A stretch of DNA of 64,000 nucleotides from Escherichia phage 55. Shown one piece after another: positions 1 through 59,620 of the stretch. The DNA is taken from the sequence record OQ599310. One strand, given 5' to 3'. How positions within the stretch are numbered: position 1 is the stretch's first letter; each line of letters opens with the position of its first letter. Under the pieces are notes generated by a model. That model was not told the origin of the DNA and made no database searches. It worked only from the letters and a program-made list of their open reading frames with translations. Both the position numbers and the translations under genes were made by a program.

Positions 1-402
1 AGTATGTACTTGAACACCGGGCATTATTCTCACGGTGATGCAGGATTCATTGCGCCTAATGATGTGTTGATTCATATTAGTCGTTCTGGTAAAACTGAAG
101 AAATGATAGGCGTGGCTAAGCATCTTAAAATGATTCGACCGAACGTCAAACAGATTCTGTTGCATTGTAACCCAGACATTCCACAAGAAAATGAAGCCCT
201 TTTTGATTACTCTTTCTGTACAGGCATCGCGGTAGAGGTTGATGAGAATTCTCTGGCTCCGACCATGTCCACTACATTGTTGTTAGCGCTTATCGATACG
301 TTTGCTATCAACCTTTCGTCTGAACGTGGATTTACCTCTAATGACTTCCTTAAGTTCCATCCAGGCGGTGCACTAGGTGCCATGTTACGAGGCGAGCAAT
401 GA
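1..402 (+). CDS. SIS-domain sugar-phosphate isomerase, KpsF/KdsD-like (arabinose-5-phosphate isomerase family); 5' end lies outside the window
   Basis: Translation aligns to the C-terminal half of the KdsD SIS domain (HGD.G, ISRSG, APT.STT, HPGGALG motifs); no CBS domains follow; the Met at 4 is internal to the alignment so the gene starts upstream. Confidence 0.7.
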   Translation, partial: SMYLNTGHYSHGDAGFIAPNDVLIHISRSGKTEEMIGVAKHLKMIRPNVKQILLHCNPDIPQENEALFDYSFCTGIAVEVDENSLAPTMSTTLLLALIDTFAINLSSERGFTSNDFLKFHPGGALGAMLRGEQ

Positions 403-583: not shown

Positions 584-2269
584 ATGAAAAAAGCTGTTAT
601 TCTTGGTGCTGGATTAGCAACTCGTTTATATCCAATTACTCACCATATTCCTAAGGTGCTTGTTAACTATAAACAAGACACTATTCTGAGCAATTTGTAT
701 ACAATTTATTCTGACCTTGGCGCAGATGAAATTATTGTAGTAGTTCATTCAAAATTTGCTGAAACTGTTCGAGCTTATTGTGAGCAAGAAGGGTTCAATG
801 TGACTATTCGTACAGTTGATGAAGCGTATGGATCTGCTTATGCTCTTGCTAAATTACACAAAGATTTAGACGGCCATAATGTAATTGTTAACTGGTGTGA
901 TATTATTCCTGATTTTGGTTCATGGTCTTGGAATGTCAACGCAATCTATGTTAAGGGTGATGAATGTCGATATAATTTCGACGGTGAAAATATCACTAAC
1001 GTAGGTTCAACAGGCGGTAATGTTGTAGGAATTTATCAGTTCAAAGACTGGGAATTCTATATGGGTTCTACCGATGAGGAAATTCATGAATACTGCAAAG
1101 GACGTGATTTCGTAGAATTCCTTTACAGCGGCGCATTCAATAAATCAGAGCTTATGAATATAATTGATTTAGGTGATATGCCTAAACTTGAAAAAGCTCA
1201 TGAAGTTCGTGAACTTAATCGTAGTTTTAATGCAGTTGAAATTGGTGAAGAAACTGTAACTAAATTCGCATTAACCGAACAGGGACGAGCTCTTCAGAAA
1301 GATGAGATTTCATGGTATTTGAAAGTGAAATCAGATTCAGTTCCTCAGTTAGTTTCTGTTAATGAAAACAATTTTGAAATGGAACGTATTAAAGGTAAGC
1401 CGGCATTTGAATATATTAAATCCAAATCAAGTCTTGCTCGTCCACAAATTGTTGATGCAATTTTAGATGCACTGAAATTCAGCACAGACACGTATTTTGT
1501 AAGTCCTGAAACTGTTCGTCGTGATTTCACTAAAGAATTCTATACGAAAGTTATTGATCGTTGTGAAAGCATTCAACCATTGATTGATTCATTTGGTAAA
1601 ATCACACATGTGAACTACACTAAGATTGGACGTCTGAAGCCAATGTTGAAACAAGCTTTAGAACATCTTATTCGTTATCATAACCGTTCTCAGGGACAGT
1701 ACTCTGTTATTCATGGTGACCCGAACTTCAGTAATACTATGATTACTGATAACGGCGAAGTCAAGTTTATCGACCCTCGTGGATATTTTGGCGAAACCAA
1801 GATTTACGGGCCAAAATTGTATGACGAAGCTAAAGTGCTTTATGCTGTTTCAGGTTATGATGAATTCAATGCTAATCCGACCTGGGGACAGTTTACTATT
1901 GATGAAACAACTTGTAATGTGACTATTAACATCAATCCATTAATTTACAAATATGGAAAGATGAGTTCGTTTAACGAGTATCATCATTTGGCGGTGGCAA
2001 TTATCTGGATTGCATTAGGTGGTTATTTCAAGAATAATCCACTTAAAGCGGTAGCCGCATATTATAAAGGTATGGAACTTCTGACTAAGCAATTACGTAA
2101 CATGGGCCGTGTACTTCAAGACGGCTCTATTAGTTATGACGTAGCAGAACCTGTAACGGCTACTCTGATTACAAAAAATCCTGGTAAATGGGTACTAACT
2201 GATAAAGAAACTGGTGTTTCCTATCGTCCAATCGGTGGCGATATCACTCACCAATGGGAACGAATCTAA
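584..2269 (+). CDS. bifunctional sugar-1-phosphate nucleotidyltransferase (N-terminal, RmlA/GalU-like) fused to APH/NahK-like anomeric sugar kinase (C-terminal)
   Basis: N-terminus ILGAGLATRLYPIT..PKVLV matches the G-x-G-T-R-L-Y-P-I-T nucleotidyltransferase signature; C-terminal region has HGDPNFSN catalytic loop and FIDPRG typical of aminoglycoside-phosphotransferase-fold kinases; GAGGA RBS upstream. Confidence 0.65.
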   Translation: MKKAVILGAGLATRLYPITHHIPKVLVNYKQDTILSNLYTIYSDLGADEIIVVVHSKFAETVRAYCEQEGFNVTIRTVDEAYGSAYALAKLHKDLDGHNVIVNWCDIIPDFGSWSWNVNAIYVKGDECRYNFDGENITNVGSTGGNVVGIYQFKDWEFYMGSTDEEIHEYCKGRDFVEFLYSGAFNKSELMNIIDLGDMPKLEKAHEVRELNRSFNAVEIGEETVTKFALTEQGRALQKDEISWYLKVKSDSVPQLVSVNENNFEMERIKGKPAFEYIKSKSSLARPQIVDAILDALKFSTDTYFVSPETVRRDFTKEFYTKVIDRCESIQPLIDSFGKITHVNYTKIGRLKPMLKQALEHLIRYHNRSQGQYSVIHGDPNFSNTMITDNGEVKFIDPRGYFGETKIYGPKLYDEAKVLYAVSGYDEFNANPTWGQFTIDETTCNVTININPLIYKYGKMSSFNEYHHLAVAIIWIALGGYFKNNPLKAVAAYYKGMELLTKQLRNMGRVLQDGSISYDVAEPVTATLITKNPGKWVLTDKETGVSYRPIGGDITHQWERI

Positions 2270-2655
2270 TGCACCGTGTAGAAAACATGCTTAATCTTTG
2301 TTTTGATGTCGATGATTGTATAACAGAGTGGAATAACAATCGTGATTACGTGAACTTCAAACCAGACGTCGAAATGGTGTCTGCCATTAATGCCTTGTAT
2401 GATGCAGGGCATACCATAACGCTTTACACTGCTCGCGGTATGAAGTCAGTAGGTCCCGGTCGTATAGCAATTGACATTCTCCCGAGTCTGATTCAGAACT
2501 TGGAAAACATTGGCTTGAAGTACCATAATTTGCTAACACATAAACCAGTATATGATTGGATTATCGACGACAAAGCTATGCGTCCTGACGAATTCAAAGC
2601 TCTTATGAATAAAGGCGAATTCGAAACATTTAAATCATATAAACCGAATCTATAA
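2254..2655 (+). CDS. HAD-superfamily phosphatase (small, resembling the phosphatase domain of polynucleotide kinase)
   Basis: Motifs CFDVDDCIT (motif I), AGHTITLYTARG, YDWIIDDKA parallel the pseT phosphatase-domain motifs [21 protein letters not shown] in the same window; alternative start at 2269 (TAATG overlap). Confidence 0.55.
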   Translation: MGTNLMHRVENMLNLCFDVDDCITEWNNNRDYVNFKPDVEMVSAINALYDAGHTITLYTARGMKSVGPGRIAIDILPSLIQNLENIGLKYHNLLTHKPVYDWIIDDKAMRPDEFKALMNKGEFETFKSYKPNL

Positions 2656-2709: not shown

Positions 2710-3870
2710 ATGAACACTTTTAAAATCGGAACGAATTTTGATTTAGCTCTTCTTGATAAAATCGTAGAGCTCAATAAAACCTATCCTAATAGCTTGATAA
2801 ACGAAGTATATGGCTCTACAAGAGAAATGGCTTTTGTAGCAGCCAGACCTGATTTTAGGCTTCCTGACGTTGACAAAAAGATGTTAGAAGACTACGTTAA
2901 ACGTTGTAACGAATTAGGTATTTGCTTTAACTATACACTCAACACGATAAATCCTGGTTCAAAAAGAGAACTAGTTGAGTGGAAGAAGAAAGCTATTCAG
3001 GATTATGTTCAGTATCTTTGGTCAATAGGCGTATGGCGTATTACTATCGCTAACCCTGTTGTTATGGAAATTGTTCGTGAAGTCAATAAAGATATTGAGA
3101 TTGAAGTTTCAACAATTCTACATGTCGATGCTGTAACTCAAATCAAATACTTGCACGACCAATATAACATCAAAAAAGTCTGTTGCGGAATTCATAAGAA
3201 CCGTTCAGTTTCTTTCCTGAAGCGTGCAGCAGAGTTTTGCAATAAGAACAATATAATATTTGAAGTTCTTGTAAATGAGTTCTGTTCTAATGCTGGTAAA
3301 GGGTATACAACACATTGTAGTTATCGTGACTCTTGCTATATTTTCCATAGTACTGATGTTACCGCTGATGATGCTAAATCCTTAAATGGATATCCAATGC
3401 AGCACTGTATTAAAGCTCGTGATACAGATCCATTTAACTGGTTGAGAACTCGTTTTGTTCGTCCTCAAGATTTGAAACTTTATAATGATATTGGTATCAC
3501 TCAATTCAAAGTTTCAGGACGTACAGGTAGCACAGACTACATTTTGAAAGTTCTTGAAGCATACGCTTCTGAAAAGTTTGAAGGTAATTTGTTAGAACTG
3601 TGGAAGCCTTTAGAGACTATTTTCACTCTTGAAAACGAAACTGAGTTTTCACATACAGTAAATATTGAAACCTCTTTGTTAGATGGCTTTTTAGAAAAAA
3701 GGTGGTTCAGACATCCAGATTTTGATTGTGCTAATGAAATCTGTGGGTCAACGTGTACATATTGTGAAAGGTATTATAAACGTCAATTATCTAAAAACGG
3801 GTTAGCAGAAAACTCCATATCTATTATTGATATAACTAGCTCTGATGACGCTTTGAGATACCCGGAATGA
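2710..3870 (+). CDS. Cys-rich protein with divergent peptidase-U32-like motifs (family that includes Fe-S dependent hydroxylases RlhA/TrhP/UbiU-V); function unknown
   Basis: Segments FNYTLNTI, EVLVNEFCSNAGKGYTTHCSYRDSC and FKVSGRTGSTDY resemble the U32 core and GR motifs; assignment is from memory of the family signature and is tentative. Confidence 0.4.
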   Translation: MNTFKIGTNFDLALLDKIVELNKTYPNSLINEVYGSTREMAFVAARPDFRLPDVDKKMLEDYVKRCNELGICFNYTLNTINPGSKRELVEWKKKAIQDYVQYLWSIGVWRITIANPVVMEIVREVNKDIEIEVSTILHVDAVTQIKYLHDQYNIKKVCCGIHKNRSVSFLKRAAEFCNKNNIIFEVLVNEFCSNAGKGYTTHCSYRDSCYIFHSTDVTADDAKSLNGYPMQHCIKARDTDPFNWLRTRFVRPQDLKLYNDIGITQFKVSGRTGSTDYILKVLEAYASEKFEGNLLELWKPLETIFTLENETEFSHTVNIETSLLDGFLEKRWFRHPDFDCANEICGSTCTYCERYYKRQLSKNGLAENSISIIDITSSDDALRYPE

Positions 3871-4148: not shown

Positions 4149-4865
4149 ATGGGAAAACATAACACAATGAAATATATCAAAGCCGCAGATTTTCAAACCG
4201 CATTTAAAGCAGTCAATCGTGAAATTTTAGAAAACCCGGAATTCGTAACCGATTCTCGTATTGGACGTTGTAATGAAATTGGGTCTATGACAGTAGTTGT
4301 TGACAATCCATCATCATTCAAAATGACCGACCCACGTATTAACCGCATCTCTTATGAATATGCCGAAGACTTCTGGAAGTTTATGATTTCTGGTGGTACT
4401 GATGCAGAAGAAGCGTTTAAGGCATATCCTAATGTCGCTAAATTTATTTCTAAACCTAAATCAGACGCTTTGCCTGCAAACTTCAACACTTTCTACGGTC
4501 CTCGCATTGCGGCCCAATTACCAGCTCTTCTAAAAGAACTTAAAGAGAAACCTAACTCTCGAAGAGTTGTGTTCCAAATTCTAGAAAGTTCTGATCAGGC
4601 TTTGCTTGATTCGGACGAAACACTTGAATATCCATGTACTGACTCAGTAACTTATTATATTCGTGATGGTAAGCTTTATACCCACTGCCATATGCGTTCT
4701 CAGAACTGTGCTGTTGTTATGCAGTTGGATTTTTATCTCCAAGGAAAATTACTTCATTATATCGCTAACGAATGCGGTGTAGAAGTTGGTGATTATACTC
4801 ATACCATGGTAAGTGCCCATGTGTTTGAACGTGATTTTGATTATGTTAAAGGATTCCTTGACTAA
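4149..4865 (+). CDS. 42: dCMP hydroxymethylase (thymidylate-synthase-fold), gene 42
   Basis: TS-family core YPCTD...GKLYTHCHMRSQN with Cys nucleophile; size 238 aa; sits upstream of uvsX as gene 42 does in T4. Confidence 0.7.
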   Translation: MGKHNTMKYIKAADFQTAFKAVNREILENPEFVTDSRIGRCNEIGSMTVVVDNPSSFKMTDPRINRISYEYAEDFWKFMISGGTDAEEAFKAYPNVAKFISKPKSDALPANFNTFYGPRIAAQLPALLKELKEKPNSRRVVFQILESSDQALLDSDETLEYPCTDSVTYYIRDGKLYTHCHMRSQNCAVVMQLDFYLQGKLLHYIANECGVEVGDYTHTMVSAHVFERDFDYVKGFLD

Positions 4866-5764
4866 TGGCTATTTTCCGCGTACCAATCTTGAGTATGCGG
4901 TCTTATGAAACTGGACAGTATGCTATCCTTAAGGATGGCAACTTCCAACTTCATTTGCACCGTGCTAATCCAGGTGATGTGATTACATATCCACGTAATG
5001 CATCTGATATTAAAGAATGCGAACGTCTTTTCCCAGAATTTAAGTTTGTTCCATTATGGTATAAAGATAACGCGTATAACACTCGTAAATATTTCTGGTC
5101 TGAAAATGAATTTGTGGTTGATTCATTAATTGCTTATTATGATTGTGATTTTCTAATCACAGATATCACCGGATATGACGGCGCTTTTGATGTTGAATTC
5201 AATTTCAATATCACTGCAGACCCTAATAAACCACGTTTTTATATTGACGAATTCTTAAAAACCGATATGTTGTCGGTTAATCGTTCACTTCAAACTACTG
5301 TGTTGAATGAACGTCAAAAAGAAGTGCTGGTTAACGCAGGTGCAGATGGTAATAAGATTATCGTAACGCAGAAAGTTATACGTCCTTCCATCATGCAGCG
5401 TCTTGTAGGTGATTTGGCCCCTATTCATCTAGATGGTATTTTTCATCCATTTCGAATTAGTGACCCATGCTATCGTTTTGAACAAGTGGTTGAATGTGCA
5501 ATTCAATTAGGTCAACCGCTTTATATAACCGATCCAAATAATAGTTTCGACAGAAATAAGTATCCTGAAGAAGCGCTGATTCGAATTTTTAAACCAACTA
5601 AAACTGAGTACTATCAAATTCTTAAAGGACGACCGAAGATTCAATATTTCGAAAATCCTGAAGAAGTATTCCATCCAGGTCTTGGCGAGTTCATCTACTT
5701 TAATGCTTTAATTTCTTCGCCGTATAATATACCTAAATACGAAGATGTCGTAATCGAGGAATAA
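4865..5764 (+). CDS. hypothetical protein occupying the locus of T4 beta-glucosyltransferase; candidate DNA-modifying transferase
   Basis: 299-aa ORF, TAATG overlap with gene 42; no similarity I can recognise to T4 beta-gt. Confidence 0.45.
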   Translation: MAIFRVPILSMRSYETGQYAILKDGNFQLHLHRANPGDVITYPRNASDIKECERLFPEFKFVPLWYKDNAYNTRKYFWSENEFVVDSLIAYYDCDFLITDITGYDGAFDVEFNFNITADPNKPRFYIDEFLKTDMLSVNRSLQTTVLNERQKEVLVNAGADGNKIIVTQKVIRPSIMQRLVGDLAPIHLDGIFHPFRISDPCYRFEQVVECAIQLGQPLYITDPNNSFDRNKYPEEALIRIFKPTKTEYYQILKGRPKIQYFENPEEVFHPGLGEFIYFNALISSPYNIPKYEDVVIEE

Positions 5765-5765
5765 A

Positions 5766-6314
5766 ATGGCTAAAATTATTTTAGTAGATGGCCCAGATAA
5801 TGCCGGTAAAACAACTTTCATTAATGACATAATGGAAATTAGTGAAAGATACGTAAAGATTGATTTCCCTAAACGAACAGTTGATGGACGTTTCGATGTT
5901 AAGTCTCGAAATGAAGTTGGTTGTTTCGAAACGATGTTGAATTATTTAGACCCTACTAAGATTTATCTGTTAGACCGTGGATATATTAGTAACTGGGTTT
6001 ATGGACGTATTCGACAAGATGCGGACTCTGTTCTTGATGTTTATGAGCAGGATTATGTTCGTCTTTGCCAAAACCATGATGTGTTCACAATTATTTTAAC
6101 ACGTAACGAAATGACTGAAAGTTTTGAAGACGACCTTATTACTTTGTCTTCATTCGGTTTTAATACAGTCATTTCACATTTTGAAGAGTTTGCAATTCAT
6201 AACAAAATCCAAACGTATCAATTACTTAATCATGATGGTGCTAACAAAGTTATAGGATTTAATGCAAGCGAACGTAATGGTTTGATTATAGAAATCATCA
6301 AATGGGCTCGTTAA
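5766..6314 (+). CDS. thymidylate-kinase-like P-loop nucleotide kinase
   Basis: P-loop VDGPDNAGKTT and LDRGYISNWVYG resembling the TMK DR(Y/H)..S..AYQ motif. Confidence 0.5.
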   Translation: MAKIILVDGPDNAGKTTFINDIMEISERYVKIDFPKRTVDGRFDVKSRNEVGCFETMLNYLDPTKIYLLDRGYISNWVYGRIRQDADSVLDVYEQDYVRLCQNHDVFTIILTRNEMTESFEDDLITLSSFGFNTVISHFEEFAIHNKIQTYQLLNHDGANKVIGFNASERNGLIIEIIKWAR

Positions 6315-25005: not shown

Positions 25006-26823
25006 ATGATTAAAAATGAAATTAAGGTATTGTCAGATGTAGAACATATTAAGAAACGTAGTGGTATGTATATTGGTTCTTCTGCTAAAGAAGCCCACGA
25101 GCGTTTTTTGTTTGGTAAATATCAACAAGTTGAATATGTTCCTGGCCTGGTTAAATTAATCGATGAGATTATTGACAACTCGGTTGATGAAGCTATTCGT
25201 ACATCATTTAAGTTTGCAAATAAAATTGATGTGCAAATTAAAAATAATCAAGTTTCGGTGGAAGATAACGGACGTGGTATTCCTCAAGGTTTAGTTACCG
25301 ACCAAACAGGTGAACAAATTCCTGGGCCTGTAGCAGCCTGGACTATTCCAAAGGCCGGTGGTAACTTTGGTGATGATTCTGAACGCAAGACTGGTGGTAT
25401 GAACGGCGTCGGGAGTAGTTTAACTAATATCTTCTCTACGTTGTTTACAGGCATCACGTCAGATGGCGAAAATGAAATCACTGTTAACTGTTCAAACGGA
25501 ATGGAAAACAAATCATGGTCTTCTAAGAAATCTAAAGGTAAAGGCACTAAAGTAATCTTCACTCCTGATTTCACTTCATTTGAAGAGCATAATTTATCTC
25601 AAATTTATTTAGATATTACTTTAGACCGACTTCAAACATTGGCAGTCGTTTATCCTGATATCAAGTTCACATTTAATGGTAAAAAGGTTGATGGTAATTT
25701 TAAACGATTTGCTAAACAATTTGGTGAAGATAACATCATTCAAGAAAATGATAAAGTCTCTATAGCATTCACAACATCACCAGATGGCTTCCGTCATTTA
25801 ACTTATGTGAATAACATCCATACTAAAAATGGTGGTCATCATGTTGAATGTGTAATGGATGATATCTGCGAACATCTTTTGCCGGGTATTAAAAAGAAAT
25901 ATAAGGGTATTGAAGTCACTAAAGCTCGTGTTAAAGAATGTCTCACAATGTTGATGTTTATTAGAGACATGAGCAACATGCGTTTTGATTCTCAGACTAA
26001 AGAACGTTTAACGTCAACGTATGGTGATATTCGTAATCATATCCAATTAGATACTAAGAAAATTGCTCAGGCACTTCTTAAAAACGAAGCCTTGATTATG
26101 CCTATTGTTGAAGCAGCATTAGCTCGTAAATTGGCGGCAGAAAAGGCTGCAGAAACTAAAGCAGCTAAAAAGGCAACTAAAGCTAAGGTTCATAAGCATA
26201 TTAAAGCTAACCAATGTGGTAAAGATGCAGATACGACATTGTTTTTAACAGAAGGTGATTCGGCAATTGGTTATCTCATTGATGTTCGTGACCGTGAACT
26301 ACACGGTGGATTCCCATTACGTGGTAAGGTGATGAATAGCTGGGGTATGTCATATGCTGATATGATGAAGAACAAAGAGCTCTTTGATATCTGTGCTATC
26401 ACGGGTCTTATTCTTGGTGAAAAGGCAGAGAATACGAACTATCGTAATATTGCAATTATGACTGATGCCGATCATGACGGTCTTGGAAGCATTTATCCGG
26501 CTTTGCTTGCTTTCTTTAGTAATTGGCCTGAATTGTTTGAACAAGGACGTATTCGCTTTGTTAAAACACCTGTAATTATTGCACAAATTGGCAAAACTCA
26601 AAAATGGTTTTATACTGTAGCTGAGTATGAAGAAGTTAAAGATACACTGCCTAAGCATAGTATTCGATACATCAAGGGATTAGGCTCACTTGAAAAGTCA
26701 GAATATCGTGAAATGATTCAGAACCCTGTGTACGACGTAGTTAAACTTCCTGAAAATTGGAAAGAACTCTTTGAAATGTTGATGGGTGATGATTCAGAAC
26801 TTCGTAAAGAATGGATGTCCTAA
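25006..26823 (+). CDS. 39: topoisomerase II large (ATPase, GyrB-like) subunit, uninterrupted gene 39 (covers T4 39+60)
   Basis: 605 aa; GHKL ATPase motifs IDNSVDEA, GRGIP; TOPRIM region; single continuous ORF. Confidence 0.9.
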   Translation: MIKNEIKVLSDVEHIKKRSGMYIGSSAKEAHERFLFGKYQQVEYVPGLVKLIDEIIDNSVDEAIRTSFKFANKIDVQIKNNQVSVEDNGRGIPQGLVTDQTGEQIPGPVAAWTIPKAGGNFGDDSERKTGGMNGVGSSLTNIFSTLFTGITSDGENEITVNCSNGMENKSWSSKKSKGKGTKVIFTPDFTSFEEHNLSQIYLDITLDRLQTLAVVYPDIKFTFNGKKVDGNFKRFAKQFGEDNIIQENDKVSIAFTTSPDGFRHLTYVNNIHTKNGGHHVECVMDDICEHLLPGIKKKYKGIEVTKARVKECLTMLMFIRDMSNMRFDSQTKERLTSTYGDIRNHIQLDTKKIAQALLKNEALIMPIVEAALARKLAAEKAAETKAAKKATKAKVHKHIKANQCGKDADTTLFLTEGDSAIGYLIDVRDRELHGGFPLRGKVMNSWGMSYADMMKNKELFDICAITGLILGEKAENTNYRNIAIMTDADHDGLGSIYPALLAFFSNWPELFEQGRIRFVKTPVIIAQIGKTQKWFYTVAEYEEVKDTLPKHSIRYIKGLGSLEKSEYREMIQNPVYDVVKLPENWKELFEMLMGDDSELRKEWMS

Positions 26824-26865: not shown

Positions 26866-27966
26866 ATGAAAGTTATGTTTATCCCATCTCGTGCAGTCCC
26901 ATTTAATCCTGACCGTGTACAAGGTGGTCTTGAAGCAGTACATTTAAATGTGTTGAAATATTTAGTTTCTATCGGTGCCGATATTGATTATATTGGTTTT
27001 GATAATGACACATTTGGTGATTGGAAGGTTAATCATCATCCTGTTGGTCATCTGACTAAATTCAGTCTAGGTATGAGTTATACTATGGCTCGTAAGATTG
27101 TTGAACTAGCCGGCATCCATGAATACGATTTTGTTGTTACTATGGAACCGACTAAACTAACCGTTCAGGCAATTAAAGACGCAGGTCTCTCTAAAGTTCA
27201 TAAGAATTTTATGGCAACACCATTTGAACCGGTATCTCGTGGCATTGTTCAAATTTGGGACCAGACTATTCAAATTCATAAGAACGGTGGTAAGAGTTAT
27301 GCTCCTACTAAAGCCTTCCGTGAATTTGAACGTAAATATTGTTATATGACTTCAGGTCTGACTGACAAAATTGATTATGATTATTGGCGAGCAAATCCGT
27401 TGTTTGAAGCCGAAGATTATCCGGTTATTTGTTTGAATGAGAAACCTGAAGTTCTTCCGGCGACTGATCTGATTATTAGTGCACAACGTTATGACACTAA
27501 AATGCGTCGTACTGATGTTGCTCTTGAAGCGATTAAAGCACTAGGCGAAAATGGTGCAGGATACTGTCCTAGTAAATGGGCACCACCAGCTAAATATCCT
27601 GTTATTATTGATGCTCCACACAGTGAAATTATGGAACGTCTTAAAACAGCTAAAGCACTTATTAATACGTGTCCTGACACAGGTACGGTAGAGAATAGTT
27701 CTATTGAAGCCATCTCTAAAGGTGTCCCTGTAATCCAGCTAGTTTTTAAGGATTATCCTCATGCGACATTTGAATACGACCCAGATACTGTGCGTGTAGA
27801 AATTGATTCCTCTACTCCTAAGAAAGAAGTAGTTGCGCTTTACACAAAAGCTGTATTAGAATTCACTGACACATACGAAGCTCGAGTTAAACGTGCTGAA
27901 GCAGTATGGAAGAAGTATAACCGAGATGCGGTTGTTGCGATGTGGGATAAAATCTTCACAGCGTAA
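26866..27966 (+). CDS. candidate GT-B fold glycosyltransferase (possible DNA hmC glycosyltransferase)
   Basis: N-terminus MKVMFIPSRA...GG and C-terminal GTVENSSIEAISKGVPVIQ resemble GT4-type motifs; lies between gene 39 and rIIA. Confidence 0.5.
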   Translation: MKVMFIPSRAVPFNPDRVQGGLEAVHLNVLKYLVSIGADIDYIGFDNDTFGDWKVNHHPVGHLTKFSLGMSYTMARKIVELAGIHEYDFVVTMEPTKLTVQAIKDAGLSKVHKNFMATPFEPVSRGIVQIWDQTIQIHKNGGKSYAPTKAFREFERKYCYMTSGLTDKIDYDYWRANPLFEAEDYPVICLNEKPEVLPATDLIISAQRYDTKMRRTDVALEAIKALGENGAGYCPSKWAPPAKYPVIIDAPHSEIMERLKTAKALINTCPDTGTVENSSIEAISKGVPVIQLVFKDYPHATFEYDPDTVRVEIDSSTPKKEVVALYTKAVLEFTDTYEARVKRAEAVWKKYNRDAVVAMWDKIFTA

Positions 27967-28271: not shown

Positions 28272-30485
28272 ATGATTATTGAAACGGCTAAAGAAACGAT
28301 TATTGGTTCAGGCGGTAAGAGCACAGCATTCACTATTCAAGGCAATAGCAAAGTTTATAAGATTTTGTCTAATGACCTTTATACAAACAAAGAATTGGCT
28401 TGTGTACGTGAATTAATTACAAACTGTATCGATGGACAAATTCTTAACGGTTGCACTGATAAGTTTATTGTTCAGGCTCCAGGTCGTTTAGACCCACGTT
28501 TTGTAGTTCGTGATTTTGGACCTGGTATGAGCGATTTCACCATTCGAGGTAATGACGAAGAGCCAGGAATTTATAACTCATATTTTGCTTCAACTAAAAC
28601 ATCGAGTAACGATTTCATTGGTGGATTCGGACTCGGCTCTAAAGCTCCATTAGCATATACCGATACGTTTAACCTTACGTCTTATCACAACGGTGAAGTT
28701 CGTGGTTACGTAATCTACCAAGATGACACAGGTCCACAAATTAAGCCGACCTTTGTAGATAAGATGGGTCCTGATGACCGTACGGGTGTAGAAGTAGTTG
28801 TACCGGTTAACCCGGAAGATTTTGAAAAGTTTGCATCCGAAATTGCATATGTTATGCGTCCTCTAGGTGATATTGCAGAAGTTCGTGGTGTTAAAGATAT
28901 TAAATACTTCCCAGAATTTGATGATGTATATTTGGCCAAGGAAGCTCCATGGGGTGAACGTGGTAATATCATGGCTGTTTATGGTGGTATTGTATATCCA
29001 ATCGGAAGTGTTATTAAAGAACAAACATGGATGATGACGCGATGCACTACAGCTTATATTAAATTCCCTATGGGTGAACTAGACGTAGCTCCGTCTCGTG
29101 AAGCATTGTCATTTGATAAACGTACAGTAGCAAATATCCATAAACGCGTTGCAGAAATCGATGCTAAATTGTTCGCTGAAGATTCTAAGAAATGGATTGA
29201 TTGTAAATACCCACGTCATGTGTTCCGTGAAATTGATTCTCTTGGCTATACCGCTCGTAAATACATGGAAAAGGCCGGGTCTAATATTGAATCACTGAAA
29301 TACTCTAAAGAACAACTAACTTATTCTGAGTTGTACAAACGTTTTAAAATGGGGCCTGAGTGGTGTAATCTTGGCGTCGTATATGATATCGTTGAATCCC
29401 CTCGTCTTCGTCGTATTCGTGAAAGTGGTAGCTCAACGGCAACCATTTCAATTAACAGTCTGATTGGCATTAACATTAAAAATGTTGAAATTGTTATTGA
29501 CGACGTTAAGGGACGCGTTCCATTAATGCGAGCTCTTAATTCAATTGAAATGTCTAAAGACGAGGTTAAATTAACTGGTAAAGTTCCACGCGGTTTTGGT
29601 AAAAGTGTACTATTCGTTGACCCTACAGACGAAGATGCAATGAAACTTCTGGAACGCCTTAAAGTTATCTTTGATGGCGACAACATTAACATGTACAAGA
29701 CTTCAGAGCTTTTACAAATCGTTAAGCCATGGATTGAAGTCAGGAAACGAACTAATGAGCCTCGTCCTAAATCCCCAAGTGCTCATCGGTTCTTTAAGAA
29801 TGAAAACGATGTTTGGGTATCAGAAGATCTCTTTATTCCAGCGAGTGAAGCAGATGAAATCCAAGGTTATGCTGTAATTCGTAATCGTTCTAATGCTGAA
29901 TGTCTTGACGCAGATAAAGGTTGGTTGAACTATGACTCCAATTTCTTGACCCGTATTGCTGATTTGTCAGGTATTAAAGAGTTCACTGTAGTTCGTCCAC
30001 AGATTGCTAAGAAAGTTCGTAAACTTGGTGAAGTAGAATGCTTGTTCGAAAAATCAATTAATGACTATATTACGCTAATCGATAAAGTGGATTATGATGA
30101 GTATGTATCACCAAGTCGTAGAGCACAGCCTTATTTGAATCATATTACTCGTAACGAAGAGCTTAACTTCCTTAGTAAGTATTTTAGCTCTAAGAACAAA
30201 GAAATCAGTAAAGACTTTGCAAAACTCTCAACAGTAAATAATCGTTGGGGATGGAATCGATTCGCAGGTGCTACTAATACAGACCTGAATAAGAAGTTAG
30301 AATTGTGTGCTAAAATTTTCGATAAGCTTAAAGATAATGCTTACGATAATGATGATAAAATGGTTATTGAATTCGAAACCAATTATCATATTGTGTCAGA
30401 CTACATGGGACGACGTGGTACTCTTTCTAAAGAACAAGTCGCTCAAATCGTTAAATTCATGAAGGCCGTGGAAGCGGCCAAATAA
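28272..30485 (+). CDS. rIIA: rIIA protein
   Basis: 737 aa; N-terminal GHKL-like ATPase motifs (ELITNCIDG, DFGPGMS, GGFGLGSK); followed by rIIB. Confidence 0.85.
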   Translation: MIIETAKETIIGSGGKSTAFTIQGNSKVYKILSNDLYTNKELACVRELITNCIDGQILNGCTDKFIVQAPGRLDPRFVVRDFGPGMSDFTIRGNDEEPGIYNSYFASTKTSSNDFIGGFGLGSKAPLAYTDTFNLTSYHNGEVRGYVIYQDDTGPQIKPTFVDKMGPDDRTGVEVVVPVNPEDFEKFASEIAYVMRPLGDIAEVRGVKDIKYFPEFDDVYLAKEAPWGERGNIMAVYGGIVYPIGSVIKEQTWMMTRCTTAYIKFPMGELDVAPSREALSFDKRTVANIHKRVAEIDAKLFAEDSKKWIDCKYPRHVFREIDSLGYTARKYMEKAGSNIESLKYSKEQLTYSELYKRFKMGPEWCNLGVVYDIVESPRLRRIRESGSSTATISINSLIGINIKNVEIVIDDVKGRVPLMRALNSIEMSKDEVKLTGKVPRGFGKSVLFVDPTDEDAMKLLERLKVIFDGDNINMYKTSELLQIVKPWIEVRKRTNEPRPKSPSAHRFFKNENDVWVSEDLFIPASEADEIQGYAVIRNRSNAECLDADKGWLNYDSNFLTRIADLSGIKEFTVVRPQIAKKVRKLGEVECLFEKSINDYITLIDKVDYDEYVSPSRRAQPYLNHITRNEELNFLSKYFSSKNKEISKDFAKLSTVNNRWGWNRFAGATNTDLNKKLELCAKIFDKLKDNAYDNDDKMVIEFETNYHIVSDYMGRRGTLSKEQVAQIVKFMKAVEAAK

Positions 30486-54126: not shown

Positions 54127-55792
<1,666 letters not shown>

Positions 55793-56135: not shown

Positions 56136-58391
56136 ATGCAAGTAACTAAGAGCAGTGGTGTATCCCAAAATTTTGATGCACAGAAAATTATTCAAGTCTT
56201 AACTTGGCAATGTGAAGGAACACAAATTGACCCATATGAATTGTACGAAGAAATTAAGACCCATCTTGTCGACGGGATGAGCACCAAAGATATCCAGAAG
56301 ATTTGTATTAAAGTTGCAGCTAACTTGATTTCTGTCGAAGAACCTGACTATCAATATGTTGCCGCTAAAGGATTAATGTTTGCACTTCGTAAAGATGTGT
56401 ATGGGCAGTTTGAACCGCCTGCTTTTATCGACCATATTTCTTATTGTGTTAATGAAGGCAAATACGACCCTGAGCTGTTGTCTCAATATTCAGCAGAAGA
56501 AATCATTTATCTCGATTCACAGATTAAACATGAACGAGACTTTGACCTGACTTATGCTGGTGCTATGCAGCTTAAAGAAAAATATCTAGTTAAAGATAAA
56601 ACAACTGGGAAGATTTATGAAACTCCACAGTTTGCTATCATGGCTATTGGCATGGCCTTACATCAAGACGAAACTCATGACCGTTTGAAACATATTATTC
56701 GTTTTTATGATGCCGTTTCTACTCATCAAGTTTCATTGCCAACCCCAATTATGGCAGGTGCTCGTACTCCAACTCGCCAGTTCTCTAGTTGTGTAGTTAT
56801 TGAAGCCGGTGATTCGTTAAAATCTATTAACAAAACTTCAGCATCAATTATTGAATATATTTCTAAACGAGCTGGTATTGGTATCAACGTTGGTATGCTT
56901 CGTGCAGAAGGTTCTAAGATTGGTATGGGTGAAGTTCGACATACAGGTGTTATTCCATTCTGGAAACATTTCCAAACTGCAGTAAAATCTTGTTCTCAAG
57001 GTGGTATTCGTGGTGGTGCTGCTACAGCATATTATCCGATGTGGCACTTAGAAGTAGAGAACCTATTAGTTCTGAAAAATAACAAAGGTGTGGATGAAAA
57101 CCGTATTCGACATATGGACTACGGAATTCAGATTAATGACCTTATGATGGAACGCCTTGGTAAAAATGATTATATTACTTTATTTAGCCCTCACGAAATG
57201 TCAGGCGAACTATACTACTCGTTCTTTGAAGATCAAGATAAATTCCGTGAGCTTTATGAGAAAGCTGAAAAAGACCCAACAATCAGAAAGAAAAGAATCA
57301 AAGCACTAGAACTCTTTGAATTGTTCATGACTGAACGCTCTGGTACTGCTCGAATTTATCCACAATTCGTTGATAACACGAACAACTACACTCCATTTAT
57401 TCGTGAAAAAGCTCCAATTCGACAGAGTAACTTATGTTGTGAAATCGCTATTCCAACTAATGATGTGAATGGTCCTGATGCTGAAATTGGTTTATGCACA
57501 TTATCTGCATTCGTGTTAGATAAATTTGATTGGCAAGACCAAGATAAAATTAATGAACTTGCTGAAGTACAAGTACGTGCACTTGATAACCTGTTAGACT
57601 ATCAAGACTATCCGGTTCCAGAAGCTTTAAAAGCTAAAAAGCGTCGTAATCTTGGTATTGGTGTTACGAACTATGCTGCATGGTTAGCTTCTAACTTTGC
57701 TTCATATGAAGACGCTAACGATTTGACTCATGAATTGTTTGAGAGATTGCAATATGGCCTTATCAAAGCATCAATCAAACTCGCCAAAGAAAAAGGACGT
57801 TGCGAGTATTATTCAGACACTAAATGGTCTAGAGGCGAATTACCTATCGACTGGTACAATAAAAAGATTGACCAAATCGCAGCCCCAAACTATGTCTGTG
57901 ACTGGGAAGAACTTCGAGCTGAACTCAAAGAACATGGAATTCGTAACTCAACGTTATCTGCACTCATGCCTTGTGAGTCAAGCAGTCAAGTATCAAACTC
58001 TACAAACGGGATTGAACCGCCGCGTGGTCCAGTAAGTATTAAAGAATCTAAAGAAGGCAACTTCCGACAAGTAGTTCCTAATATTGAACACAACATGGGT
58101 CTTTATGACTATGCGTGGAAACTCGCTAAGAAAGGTAATAAGCCTTATCTGACACAAGTTGTTATCATGTTAAAATGGGTGTGCCAATCTGCTTCTGCTA
58201 ATACATACTACGACCCTTCAGTCTTTGAGAAAGGCAAAGTGCCAATGTCTGTAATGCTTGATGACTTGCTTTACTTCTGGTACTTTGGTGGTAAGAACCT
58301 TTACTATCATAACACTCGAGATGGTTCTGGTACAGATGACTATGAGTTAGAAACGCCTAAAGCTGAAGATTGCTCCGCTTGTAAGCTTTAA
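56136..58391 (+). CDS. nrdA: ribonucleotide reductase class Ia alpha subunit
   Basis: 751 aa; NLCCEIAIP active-site motif; C-terminal CSAC-like tail. Confidence 0.95.
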   Translation: MQVTKSSGVSQNFDAQKIIQVLTWQCEGTQIDPYELYEEIKTHLVDGMSTKDIQKICIKVAANLISVEEPDYQYVAAKGLMFALRKDVYGQFEPPAFIDHISYCVNEGKYDPELLSQYSAEEIIYLDSQIKHERDFDLTYAGAMQLKEKYLVKDKTTGKIYETPQFAIMAIGMALHQDETHDRLKHIIRFYDAVSTHQVSLPTPIMAGARTPTRQFSSCVVIEAGDSLKSINKTSASIIEYISKRAGIGINVGMLRAEGSKIGMGEVRHTGVIPFWKHFQTAVKSCSQGGIRGGAATAYYPMWHLEVENLLVLKNNKGVDENRIRHMDYGIQINDLMMERLGKNDYITLFSPHEMSGELYYSFFEDQDKFRELYEKAEKDPTIRKKRIKALELFELFMTERSGTARIYPQFVDNTNNYTPFIREKAPIRQSNLCCEIAIPTNDVNGPDAEIGLCTLSAFVLDKFDWQDQDKINELAEVQVRALDNLLDYQDYPVPEALKAKKRRNLGIGVTNYAAWLASNFASYEDANDLTHELFERLQYGLIKASIKLAKEKGRCEYYSDTKWSRGELPIDWYNKKIDQIAAPNYVCDWEELRAELKEHGIRNSTLSALMPCESSSQVSNSTNGIEPPRGPVSIKESKEGNFRQVVPNIEHNMGLYDYAWKLAKKGNKPYLTQVVIMLKWVCQSASANTYYDPSVFEKGKVPMSVMLDDLLYFWYFGGKNLYYHNTRDGSGTDDYELETPKAEDCSACKL

Positions 58392-58441: not shown

Positions 58442-59620
58442 ATGAGTACAGTTTTTAATACCCAAAAAGTTGATGTTTTGAATGAACCAATGTTCTTTGG
58501 TTCCGGTCTTGGCCTTGCGCGTTACGATATTCAACGCCATAAAGTTTTTGAAGAGCTTATTGAAAAGCAATTGTCGTTTTTTTGGCGCCCTGAAGAGGTA
58601 AACTTGATGTTGGACTCTGCGCAGTTCAATAAGCTTCCACAGTTCCAACAGAACATCTTTACGAACAACCTTAAGTATCAATCATTATTGGATTCTATCC
58701 AAGGCAGGGCACCATCTGCGGTACTTATGGCATTGCTTTCCGACCCTTCATTAGATACATGGGTTGCTACATGGACATTCAGTGAAACCATTCACTCTCG
58801 TTCATATACTCATATCATGCGAAATCTTTATACTGATCCATCGAAGGTATTTGATGAGATTGTATTAGATGAAGCAATTATGAAACGTGCGGAATCAATC
58901 GGCAAATATTATGATGATGTTCTAGTTAAAACACGTGAATGGGAAAATGCTAAAGAAATTTTTAAATGTTTTTCCGAAAATGAATATGATTTGGATGCAT
59001 ATTCAAATAGTCTTATGCATGTGGAAGAATGTAAACGTGCATTAATGAAGTCTCTTTATCTCTGCTTACACGTTATTAACGCCTTAGAAGCTATTCGTTT
59101 TTACGTATCATTTGCATGTACTTTCAACTTCCATAAGAACATGGAAATCATGGAAGGTAATGCAAAGATTATGAAGTTTATCGCTCGTGACGAACAACTC
59201 CACCTTAAAGGCACTCAGTACATTATTCGACAGCTCCAACTTGGTGTTGATGGGGATGAATGGGTTCAAATTGCTAAAGAGTGTGAGCAAGAAGCAGTAG
59301 ATATCTTTATGGAAGTAAATAGTCAAGAGAAGGAATGGGCTGCACACCTCTTTAAAGACGGTACATGTCCAGGTATCAATACGCAGAGTATGTGTGCTTT
59401 TGTTGATTACTTGACTGTGTCTCGTATGAAACAGTGCGGTTTGCCATGCCCAATCACTGATGCTCCGACCAAGCATCCGTATCCTTGGATTCGTGAATAT
59501 CTGAACTCTGATTTAGTTCAAGCAGCTCCTCAGGAAGTTGAAATCAGTTCTTATCTTGTCGCACAAATTGATAATGATGTAGACCAAAATGTAATCAATT
59601 CATACAAAAAATATTTCTAA
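58442..59620 (+). CDS. nrdB: ribonucleotide reductase class Ia beta subunit, uninterrupted
   Basis: 392 aa ferritin-like diiron protein (SETIHSRSYTHI); continuous ORF. Confidence 0.95.
   Translation: MSTVFNTQKVDVLNEPMFFGSGLGLARYDIQRHKVFEELIEKQLSFFWRPEEVNLMLDSAQFNKLPQFQQNIFTNNLKYQSLLDSIQGRAPSAVLMALLSDPSLDTWVATWTFSETIHSRSYTHIMRNLYTDPSKVFDEIVLDEAIMKRAESIGKYYDDVLVKTREWENAKEIFKCFSENEYDLDAYSNSLMHVEECKRALMKSLYLCLHVINALEAIRFYVSFACTFNFHKNMEIMEGNAKIMKFIARDEQLHLKGTQYIIRQLQLGVDGDEWVQIAKECEQEAVDIFMEVNSQEKEWAAHLFKDGTCPGINTQSMCAFVDYLTVSRMKQCGLPCPITDAPTKHPYPWIREYLNSDLVQAAPQEVEISSYLVAQIDNDVDQNVINSYKKYF

Follow-up and report, generated by a model that had tools for sequence, protein, structure and literature searches.

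The DNA of phages RB69 and DLP3 carries mono- to tri-arabosylated 5-hydroxycytosine (5hoC) and not arabinosyl-hydroxymethylcytosine (Lee et al., NAR 2026, PMC13326640), and a separate AEM 2026 paper agrees on arabinosyl-5-hydroxycytosine. In RB69 DNA, cytosine is the only base replaced, and it is replaced completely. The thymidylate synthase (ThyA) homolog gp48 binds flavin and converts deoxycytidine monophosphate (dCMP) to 5-hydroxy-dCMP (5hodCMP), with 18O2 labelling the product (PMC13326640); this O2-dependent reaction has been reconstituted by He et al., as cited in PMC13326640. The three-enzyme route to UDP-arabinofuranose (UDP-Araf) is complete without gp50, the product of another gene of the RB69 cluster, and Acinetobacter phage DLP3 has the complete arabinosyl-5hoC pathway without such a gene (PMC13326640). 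Here we analyze the gp50 ortholog in a 64,000-nucleotide stretch of Escherichia phage 55 (sequence record OQ599310; hereafter the window), where an open reading frame (ORF) at positions 2710–3870 corresponds to RB69p050/ORF050c, annotated "peptidase" in RB69.

The closest described systems are the U32 proteins RlhA, TrhP and UbiU/V, all of which require prephenate, the oxygen donor in the case of UbiU/V. The iron–sulfur (Fe-S) cysteines of U32 proteins typically follow the pattern CX6CX15CX3/4C, which is respaced in UbiU (CX6CX16CX38C) and UbiV, and in RlhA C169, C176 and two C-terminal cysteines are essential for the formation of ho5C2501. As for gp50 itself, PMC13326640 lists it in Table 1 only, as a "sugar or heterocycle reductase" with a fold match to 5d88 and with no experiment or discussion; the discussion of that paper names the pyrimidine hydroxylation pathways of tRNA and rRNA, with no link to gp50. 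The Thanatos paper modelled the ortholog TH1_065 and assigned it no role, and the deposited HY126 annotation of the ortholog reads "hypothetical protein". Our literature searches on the Afh gene names, on U32 proteins with phage DNA modification and on chorismate mutase in Straboviridae found nothing relevant.

On balance, we consider gp50 to be probably a prephenate-dependent, O2-independent cytosine C5-hydroxylase, acting most likely on dCMP, and the anaerobic counterpart of gp48. Against the Pfam profile PF01136 (Peptidase_U32), gp50 scored 42.2 bits, above the gathering score of 22.4 (E = 7e-11, amino acids 94–286), and nearly all listed gp50 homologs carry a precomputed PF01136 annotation. 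When a 78-sequence profile of the gp50 family was aligned with Escherichia coli RlhA using hhalign, the probability was 84.5% (E = 7e-6, 205 columns, amino acids 54–285). The three motifs from which the first-pass annotation of the window had suggested a resemblance to the U32 family are present at amino acids 73–80 (FNYTLNTI), 185–209 (EVLVNEFCSNAGKGYTTHCSYRDSC) and 266–277 (FKVSGRTGSTDY), and each aligns with the equivalent U32 motif of RlhA: FNYTLNTI is paired with VTLNTI, NEF...HCSYRDSCYIFH with EF...LCVAYSGQCYISH, and FKVSGRTGS with FKIEGRYKD. AlphaFold2 gave a confident model of gp50 (pLDDT 93.6, pTM 0.92), whose top match in a Foldseek search of the PDB was the U32 protein Mk0906 (5d88; E = 6e-7, target TM-score 0.67), followed by generic TIM barrels; a PDB sequence search with gp50 returned no match at E ≤ 1. 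These results, together with the conserved ligands described below, uphold the suggested resemblance, indicating that gp50 belongs to the U32 family and has a U32-type TIM barrel.

Judging by its sequence, gp50 is a separate U32 subfamily, outside the UbiU, UbiV, TrhP and RlhA equivalogs. Among the NCBIfam equivalog models it matched UbiU only, below threshold at 18.5 bits with a cut-off of 440, and the Pfam scan detected no accessory domain (DUF3656, Peptidase_U32_C). Searched against 1.84 billion representatives, the family profile reached only 1702, and the subfamily comprises 486 clusters (50% identity) at E ≤ 1e-30, almost all of those beyond the RB69-like clade being from uncultivated phages. 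Across genera, gp50 is the best-conserved protein of the cluster, with 82–86% identity compared with 76–82% for gp48 and 41–84% for the others. Two other assignments were rejected. As a member of the ThyA superfamily, gp50 gave no Thymidylat_synt match and would instead be a functional analogue of the 5-hydroxy-dCMP synthases; as a radical S-adenosylmethionine (SAM) protein, which CGSTCTYC (C345-x3-C349-x-Y-C352) might recall, it gave no Radical_SAM match at E ≤ 1, and the motif is C-terminal (amino acids 340–352 of 386) with a conserved fourth cysteine.

The C-x10-C-x5-C spacing read in the first-pass annotation is correct and corresponds to C192, C203 and C209; C233 and the C-terminal C340–C352 cluster lie beyond the cysteine motifs cited there. 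Nine cysteines are invariant in gp50 homologs (121 sequences, 48–100% identity), and eight ligand positions persist among 128 distant representatives (23–47% identity), the four candidate ligands whose conservation had been proposed as a check being kept down to 23% identity. In these distant members C192 is conserved in 98%, C203 and C233 in 100%, and C340, C345, C349 and C352 in 94–95%, while position 209 alternates between Cys (59%) and His (40%), as expected of a metal ligand. C192, C203, C/H209 and C233 would supply the four cysteines of U32 Fe-S hydroxylases with a non-canonical spacing (x10, x5, x23), and in the profile alignment C203/C209 are in register with C169/C176 of RlhA. This conservation leads us to predict that C192/C203/C209/C233 hold a [4Fe-4S] cluster and that CX4CX3CX2C, with TGT codons at 3727, 3742, 3754 and 3763, forms a second metal site.

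In phages, the U32 gene is linked to genes for chorismate mutase (CM) and for fusions of CM with 3-deoxy-D-arabino-heptulosonate 7-phosphate (DAHP) synthase, a linkage that is new here. Serratia phage LC53 encodes a type II CM (CM_2, 44.6 bits vs a gathering score of 27) between the U32 gene and the ThyA homolog. By tblastn, LC53-type CMs were found in 54 phage records, and all 54 listed rows adjoin U32 and/or ThyA-homolog genes; the phages infect Klebsiella, Serratia, Yersinia, Enterobacter, Proteus, Erwinia, Edwardsiella, Providencia, Pectobacterium, Morganella, Kosakonia, Escherichia (EcS1) and Shewanella. A CM also stands beside the U32 gene in 11 uncultivated-phage loci unrelated to Straboviridae, either in DAHP synthase::CM fusions (Table 1), both domains of which exceed the Pfam thresholds, or free-standing (L047, L050, L052, L053, L057 and L058). 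DAHP synthase alone adjoins the U32 gene in L009 and L030, and in three contigs of metagenome-assembled genomes (MAGs) of Firmicutes a CM lies at or within ~2 kb of it. That two gene architectures in unrelated phage lineages share the same U32–CM partnership is strong guilt by association. As CM yields prephenate, the oxygen donor of U32 hydroxylases, the Fe-S hydroxylase reading of gp50 is strengthened. The alternative assignment of the DAHP synthase neighbors as 3-deoxy-D-manno-octulosonate 8-phosphate synthases using arabinose-5-phosphate was rejected, since NCBIfam scores were far higher for Bacillus-type DAHP synthase and five of the proteins have a C-terminal CM_2. Among shikimate-pathway auxiliary genes, phage DAHP synthase::CM fusions were not found described in the literature examined.

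The neighborhoods of the U32 gene point to a nucleotide substrate. We labelled 39 non-Straboviridae loci with a close gp50-family member, over ±10 kb, using seed proteins and hidden Markov models (HMMs). A cassette of dUTPase/MazG, thymidylate kinase (Tmk), a phrog_3891 glycosyltransferase and U32 occurs in 7 of the 39 loci, and one of glycosyltransferase, SIS isomerase, AfhE-like protein and U32 in another 7/39, with variants that also carry DAHP synthase::CM; the putative first DNA arabinosyltransferase of RB69 belongs to phrog_3891. The replication module of L012, on a 44-kb contig, encodes primase, an SSB-like protein, dUTPase_2, Tmk, glycosyltransferase, U32, Pol III alpha and RecA, which is the same scheme as in T4 (dNTP pyrophosphatase, base-modifying enzyme, dNMP kinase and glycosyltransferase) with U32 replacing gp42. 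On megaphage-like contigs the U32 gene directly follows dCMP deaminase, on cellular contigs it stands beside NT5C, dNK, a PnuC-like transporter and deoxyribosyltransferase, and in Phocaeicola faecalis it follows a guanylate-kinase::methyltransferase fusion. Such nucleotide-modification neighbors suggest that U32 supplies the hydroxyl group that the glycosyltransferase needs. A ThyA-family gene was found within ±10 kb in only 1 of the 39 uncultivated loci, and that one is a canonical ThyA; in Straboviridae the ThyA homolog adjoins the U32 gene or lies within two small genes of it at every locus.

The host range of the U32 gene is narrower than that of the gp48 homolog. The U32 gene was found in 221 cultured-phage records, all at ≥80% identity and none below; the named hosts all belong to Enterobacterales genera or to Shewanella. 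Of the 373 records with the gp48 homolog, 57 are from Acinetobacter and 20 from Rhizobium phages, two genera that do not occur among the listed hosts of phages with the U32 gene. In Acinetobacter phage Morttis and Pseudomonas phage PspYZU05, which we inspected, there is no U32 gene and the phosphatase gene runs straight into the ThyA homolog. Acinetobacter, Rhizobium and Pseudomonas are aerobes, and Enterobacterales and Shewanella are facultative anaerobes. A scan of 100,044 species genomes gave seven loci, mostly in obligate anaerobes (Erysipelotrichales, Bacillota, Lachnospiraceae, two Romboutsia, Phocaeicola faecalis and a BRC1 MAG). We regard the host-lifestyle correlation as supportive, not decisive.

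The mechanism that we propose, in which we infer Fe-S binding, prephenate use, hydroxylase activity, the substrate and the anaerobic role of gp50, is drawn by analogy with UbiU/V, RlhA and TrhP. The active site of the TIM barrel would bind the cytosine substrate, most likely dCMP of the nucleotide pool and less likely cytosine in DNA. The substrate would undergo a two-electron oxidation, with electrons leaving through the [4Fe-4S] cluster on C192/C203/C209/C233 and the second, C-terminal cluster, and decarboxylation of prephenate would supply the hydroxyl group, giving 5hodCMP and phenylpyruvate. The 5hodCMP would then be phosphorylated, incorporated into DNA and arabinosylated by the enzymes of the neighboring genes. 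As an anaerobic isozyme, gp50 could permit full DNA modification in the oxygen-free gut, where gp48 would still need O2 and flavin; given this need and the replication of coliphages in the anoxic gut, an anaerobic twin makes sense. RB69 likewise has anaerobic NrdD/NrdG alongside aerobic NrdA/NrdB. More tentatively, gp50 possibly founds a phage-borne U32 subfamily that hydroxylates free dCMP with prephenate. It would then act as the anaerobic twin of gp48 in RB69-type phages and, in many uncultivated phages of anaerobes, as the sole hydroxylase, replacing the ThyA-homolog step, with CM or DAHP synthase::CM supplying the oxygen donor.

Several observations weigh against this interpretation. A custom CM HMM run over the 64-kb window (E ≤ 0.01) detected no CM, and Mosigviruses as a whole, the window included, are without one, so that they would depend on host PheA/TyrA for prephenate. 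Of the residues of E. coli CM (EcCM), phage CMs keep R11, R28, K39, S84 and Q88, with D48/R51/E52 variable. The Straboviridae CMs (L005 7158–7502 and others) keep E52 as well but differ by D48N, R51V/L/I and the loss of ~17 residues after helix 2. The activity of these short CMs is thus putative; they may have become altered as enzymes, or may bind prephenate or chorismate as partners of the U32 protein. In gp50, residues other than Cys occupy the third and fourth canonical U32 cysteine positions, with C192 and C233 taking their place. On the uncultivated contigs, a ThyA homolog could sit elsewhere, beyond ±10 kb, and in ~12 uncultivated loci the U32 gene abuts an AfhE-like sugar-activation gene, which fits a sugar-related role too. 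The host correlation rests on few independent lineages, and E. coli Dhakaviruses (WG01, L007) carry an arabinosyl-5hoC cluster without the U32 gene, indicating that phages of a facultative anaerobe can do without it. Furthermore, in vitro hydroxylation has yet to be demonstrated for any U32 protein (PMC10990095), and U32 enzymes are known to act on RNA and on a prenylphenol rather than on free nucleotides. As a side observation, the reduced cluster of WG01 also lacks CM and arabinose-5-phosphate isomerase, which makes it a natural control.

All characterized nucleic-acid U32 enzymes act on RNA polymers, the gp50 profile aligns best with RlhA and TrhP, and the dCMP deaminase adjoining U32 on megaphage-like contigs makes dUMP; gp50 could therefore be a prephenate-dependent hydroxylase of host or phage RNA that tunes translation in the manner of TrhP or RlhA, of cytosine in DNA, or of a base such as dUMP. 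We think this unlikely, because gp50 has neither the DUF3656 of RlhA nor the C-terminal domain of TrhP, and its conserved gene neighborhood encodes dNTP pyrophosphatase, dNMP kinase, DNA polymerase and a member of a DNA glycosyltransferase family instead of RNA enzymes. Moreover, in RB69 cytosine alone is replaced, and fully, which argues for synthesis at the level of the nucleotide pool.

A place on the sugar branch, as a redox or hydroxylating enzyme for arabinose phosphate or nucleoside diphosphate (NDP)-arabinose, seems quite improbable. This assignment would suit the location of gp50 directly 3ʹ of the isomerase, AfhE-like and phosphatase genes, the ~12 uncultivated loci mentioned above and the reductase label in Table 1 of PMC13326640. 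However, DLP3 makes mono- to tri-arabinosyl-5hoC without U32, and the UDP-Araf route already has its three enzymes. In addition, U32 also occurs in cassettes without sugar-activation genes (dUTPase-Tmk-glycosyltransferase-U32 in 7 loci, and dCMP deaminase-U32), a sugar reductase gives no rationale for the linkage to CM, and in the Pfam scan no NAD- or FMN-binding family matched gp50. The first-pass annotation had also suggested that the protein could modify a base or sugar further, which it probably does not do, since the products in RB69 and DLP3 are plain 5hoC arabinosides and DLP3 does without the U32 gene. It is very improbable that gp50 is a U32 peptidase of the collagenase-like kind, or that it plays no part in DNA modification, as a relic or a protein without enzymatic function: GenBank and PHROG annotations do say "peptidase" or "collagenase-like protease", the HY126 authors chose "hypothetical protein", and aerobic heterologous production of 5hodC needs only gp48 and a kinase, but U32 proteolysis has no known catalytic mechanism, the family has been reinterpreted as Fe-S hydroxylases, and neither a relic nor a protease would be expected to keep eight conserved metal ligands, 82–86% cross-genus identity and a fixed position in nucleotide-modification cassettes of unrelated phages.

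The first 6.4 kb of the window are 97.6–98% identical in DNA sequence to RB69-type Mosigviruses. Arabinose-5-phosphate isomerase, the AfhE-like nucleotidyltransferase/kinase and the HAD phosphatase are encoded in this order upstream of gp50, and downstream follow a 79-amino-acid ORF (ORF049c), the ThyA homolog, the phrog_3891 glycosyltransferase, a Tmk-like kinase and uvsX (Table 1). The first-pass annotation had placed the U32 gene between sugar-activation genes and a dCMP hydroxymethylase. The U32 gene does lie in the modification cluster, although ORF049c intervenes and the ThyA homolog is a 5-hydroxy-dCMP synthase (PMC13326640); the hydroxymethylcytosine implied as the cluster's product gives way to arabinosyl-5-hydroxycytosine. 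The ThyA homolog shares 98–99.6% identity with its orthologs in RB69 and HY126. In the window, a custom ThyA HMM matched only 4149–4865 and 54932–55792.

Table 1. Coordinates of the U32 gene, its predicted sites and the surrounding genes in the window, and of the DAHP synthase::CM fusion genes in uncultivated-phage loci.
Feature	Position	Strand	Basis or remark
gp50-like U32 protein gene, 386 aa	2710..3870	+	PF01136 42.2 bits; PHROG 5757
Pfam Peptidase_U32 region, aa 94-286	2989..3567	+	Profile match; TIM-barrel strands predicted throughout
Predicted metal site 1, C192-x10-C203-x5-C209-x23-C233	3283..3408	+	Ligand conservation; RlhA alignment
Predicted metal site 2, C340-x4-C345-x3-C349-x2-C352	3727..3765	+	Conservation; second cluster or Zn site
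ORF049c-like gene, 79 aa	3867..4106	+	Start overlaps gp50 stop (ATGA)
ThyA homolog, RB69 gp48 ortholog, O2/flavin-dependent 5-hydroxy-dCMP synthase	4149..4865	+	Pfam Thymidylat_synt; function from PMC13326640
phrog_3891 glycosyltransferase, RB69 gp46:47 ortholog, putative arabinosyltransferase 1	4865..5764	+	
Thymidylate-kinase-like nucleotide kinase, RB69 gp45	5766..6314	+	
HAD-type phosphatase, RB69 gp51, AfhF-like	2254..2655	+	
Bifunctional nucleotidyltransferase/kinase, RB69 gp52:53, AfhE-like, intact 561 aa	584..2269	+	
Arabinose-5-phosphate isomerase, 3ʹ part, RB69 gp55	1..402	+	Truncated by window start
DAHP synthase::CM fusions	L041 8411-9433; L042 9-971; L044 7302-8357; L045 8332-9387; L055 11079-12197		Directly adjoining U32 gene

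Several further features of the window were observed. ORF052c/053c and ORF046c/047c, which are split in the RB69 reference record, are intact single ORFs here (584–2269, 561 aa; 4865–5764, 299 aa), in agreement with published reports, which attribute the RB69 splits to sequencing errors. ORF049c contains no Cys. Outside Mosigviruses, its homologs occur only in a few phages of Yersinia, Pectobacterium and Serratia, some of which have it between the U32 gene and CM; in the HY126 record it is frameshifted by two 1-nt insertions, either a real change or a homopolymer error. It fills the slot that CM takes in other genera. The possibility that it is a degenerate CM was rejected (no Pfam match, BLASTP E = 17, hhalign probability 0.4%). 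The 54-nt gap 5ʹ of gp50 holds a promoter-like TTTAAA-16-TATAAT at 2629–2656 and an imperfect hairpin at 2683–2700, ten bases 5ʹ of the start codon; the promoter/terminator scan was at chance level, with 24 sites vs 23.5 expected. In LC53 a putative endonuclease gene (L005 5352–5990) is inserted between the phosphatase and U32 genes, which suggests that this junction is an insertion site for mobile elements.

Elsewhere in the window, a 366-aa ORF (26866–27966, +) lies between a gp39-like topoisomerase (25006–26823) and an rIIA-sized ORF (28272–30485), where RB69 has ORF003c, its proposed second arabinosyltransferase; the 366-aa ORF had no Pfam match. The window also encodes a canonical thymidylate synthase (54932–55792, 324 bits) and aerobic NrdA/NrdB (56136–58391 and 58442–59620), so that, together with the gp48 homolog, the phage has two ThyA-fold enzymes of different chemistry. 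Outside phages, a cellular cassette in Phocaeicola faecalis (L073 3044–7137) and a Bacillota MAG (L003 7135–17428 / L069) consists of GP88, a SAM methyltransferase with or without a fused guanylate kinase, a ~265-aa protein and U32. On the Bacillota contig, the genes that come next encode NT5C, a PnuC-like transporter, dNK, an AlaX-like protein, a radical-SAM/SPASM protein, a second U32 paralog and a nucleoside deoxyribosyltransferase. The GP88 cassette looks like a pathway for nucleotide hydroxylation and O-methylation (cf. ho5U to mo5U), and could be a modified-nucleoside or defense system. L003 does contain a true U32 paralog, the 377-aa gene; a 402-aa gene in L002, considered as a second U32, was rejected, with a weak glycosyltransferase-like Pfam match (QTMAN_N) and no PHROGs match.

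If gp50 is the hydroxylase that we propose, gut coliphages would keep full arabinosyl-5hoC modification of their DNA without O2, where the known 5hodCMP synthase cannot work, and would hence remain protected from restriction and CRISPR. Prephenate-dependent hydroxylation would extend from RNA and quinones to DNA precursors and viruses, and CM and DAHP synthase would be phage auxiliary genes with a specific purpose. A small soluble substrate would be a first among U32 enzymes, and the reaction of gp50 would be the first O2-independent route to a hypermodified DNA base; being a compact single chain with a cheap soluble substrate, gp50 could allow the in vitro reconstitution that has not yet been achieved (PMC10990095). 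Hundreds of uncultivated phages of anaerobes would have hydroxylated, glycosylated pyrimidines made without a thymidylate-synthase homolog, and screens based on ThyA signatures would miss them.

Among known systems, RlhA (YdcP), the E. coli synthase of 5-hydroxycytidine at C2501 of 23S rRNA, is the top profile match among the E. coli paralogs. It shares the U32 domain with gp50, its essential cysteine pair C169/C176 corresponds to C203/C209, it has extra essential C-terminal cysteines, and it makes 5-hydroxycytosine with a need for prephenate and Fe-S biogenesis. In contrast to gp50, with 386 aa and no RNA-associated domain, RlhA has 653 aa, DUF3656 and a ribosomal precursor substrate; the spacing of the C-terminal cysteines differs, and the predicted substrate of gp50 is a deoxynucleotide. 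The best structural match, Mk0906 (PDB 5d88), which the NAR 2026 authors also obtained (PMC13326640), is 11% identical to gp50, has 247 aa, lacks the region of the C-terminal Cys cluster and has no known function.

The pairing of two hydroxylases has precedents in E. coli itself, in TrhO/TrhP, which form ho5U in tRNA, and in UbiI/H/F and UbiU-UbiV, where an O2-dependent hydroxylase (UbiI/H/F being flavin monooxygenases) is duplicated by a prephenate-dependent U32 Fe-S enzyme that serves without oxygen; we propose the same logic for gp48 and gp50. The two [4Fe-4S] clusters of the UbiU-UbiV heterodimer are mirrored by the two predicted metal sites per gp50 chain, whereas gp50 is a single, phage-encoded chain below the UbiU model, and its O2-dependent partner is a ThyA-fold flavoenzyme. 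That partner, represented by RB69 gp48, DLP3 gp80 and the HY126 homolog, belongs to the same cluster and has the product and pathway that we propose for gp50 too, but it has an unrelated fold, that of thymidylate synthase, and a demonstrated activity with flavin and O2, whereas gp50 would use an Fe-S cluster and prephenate.

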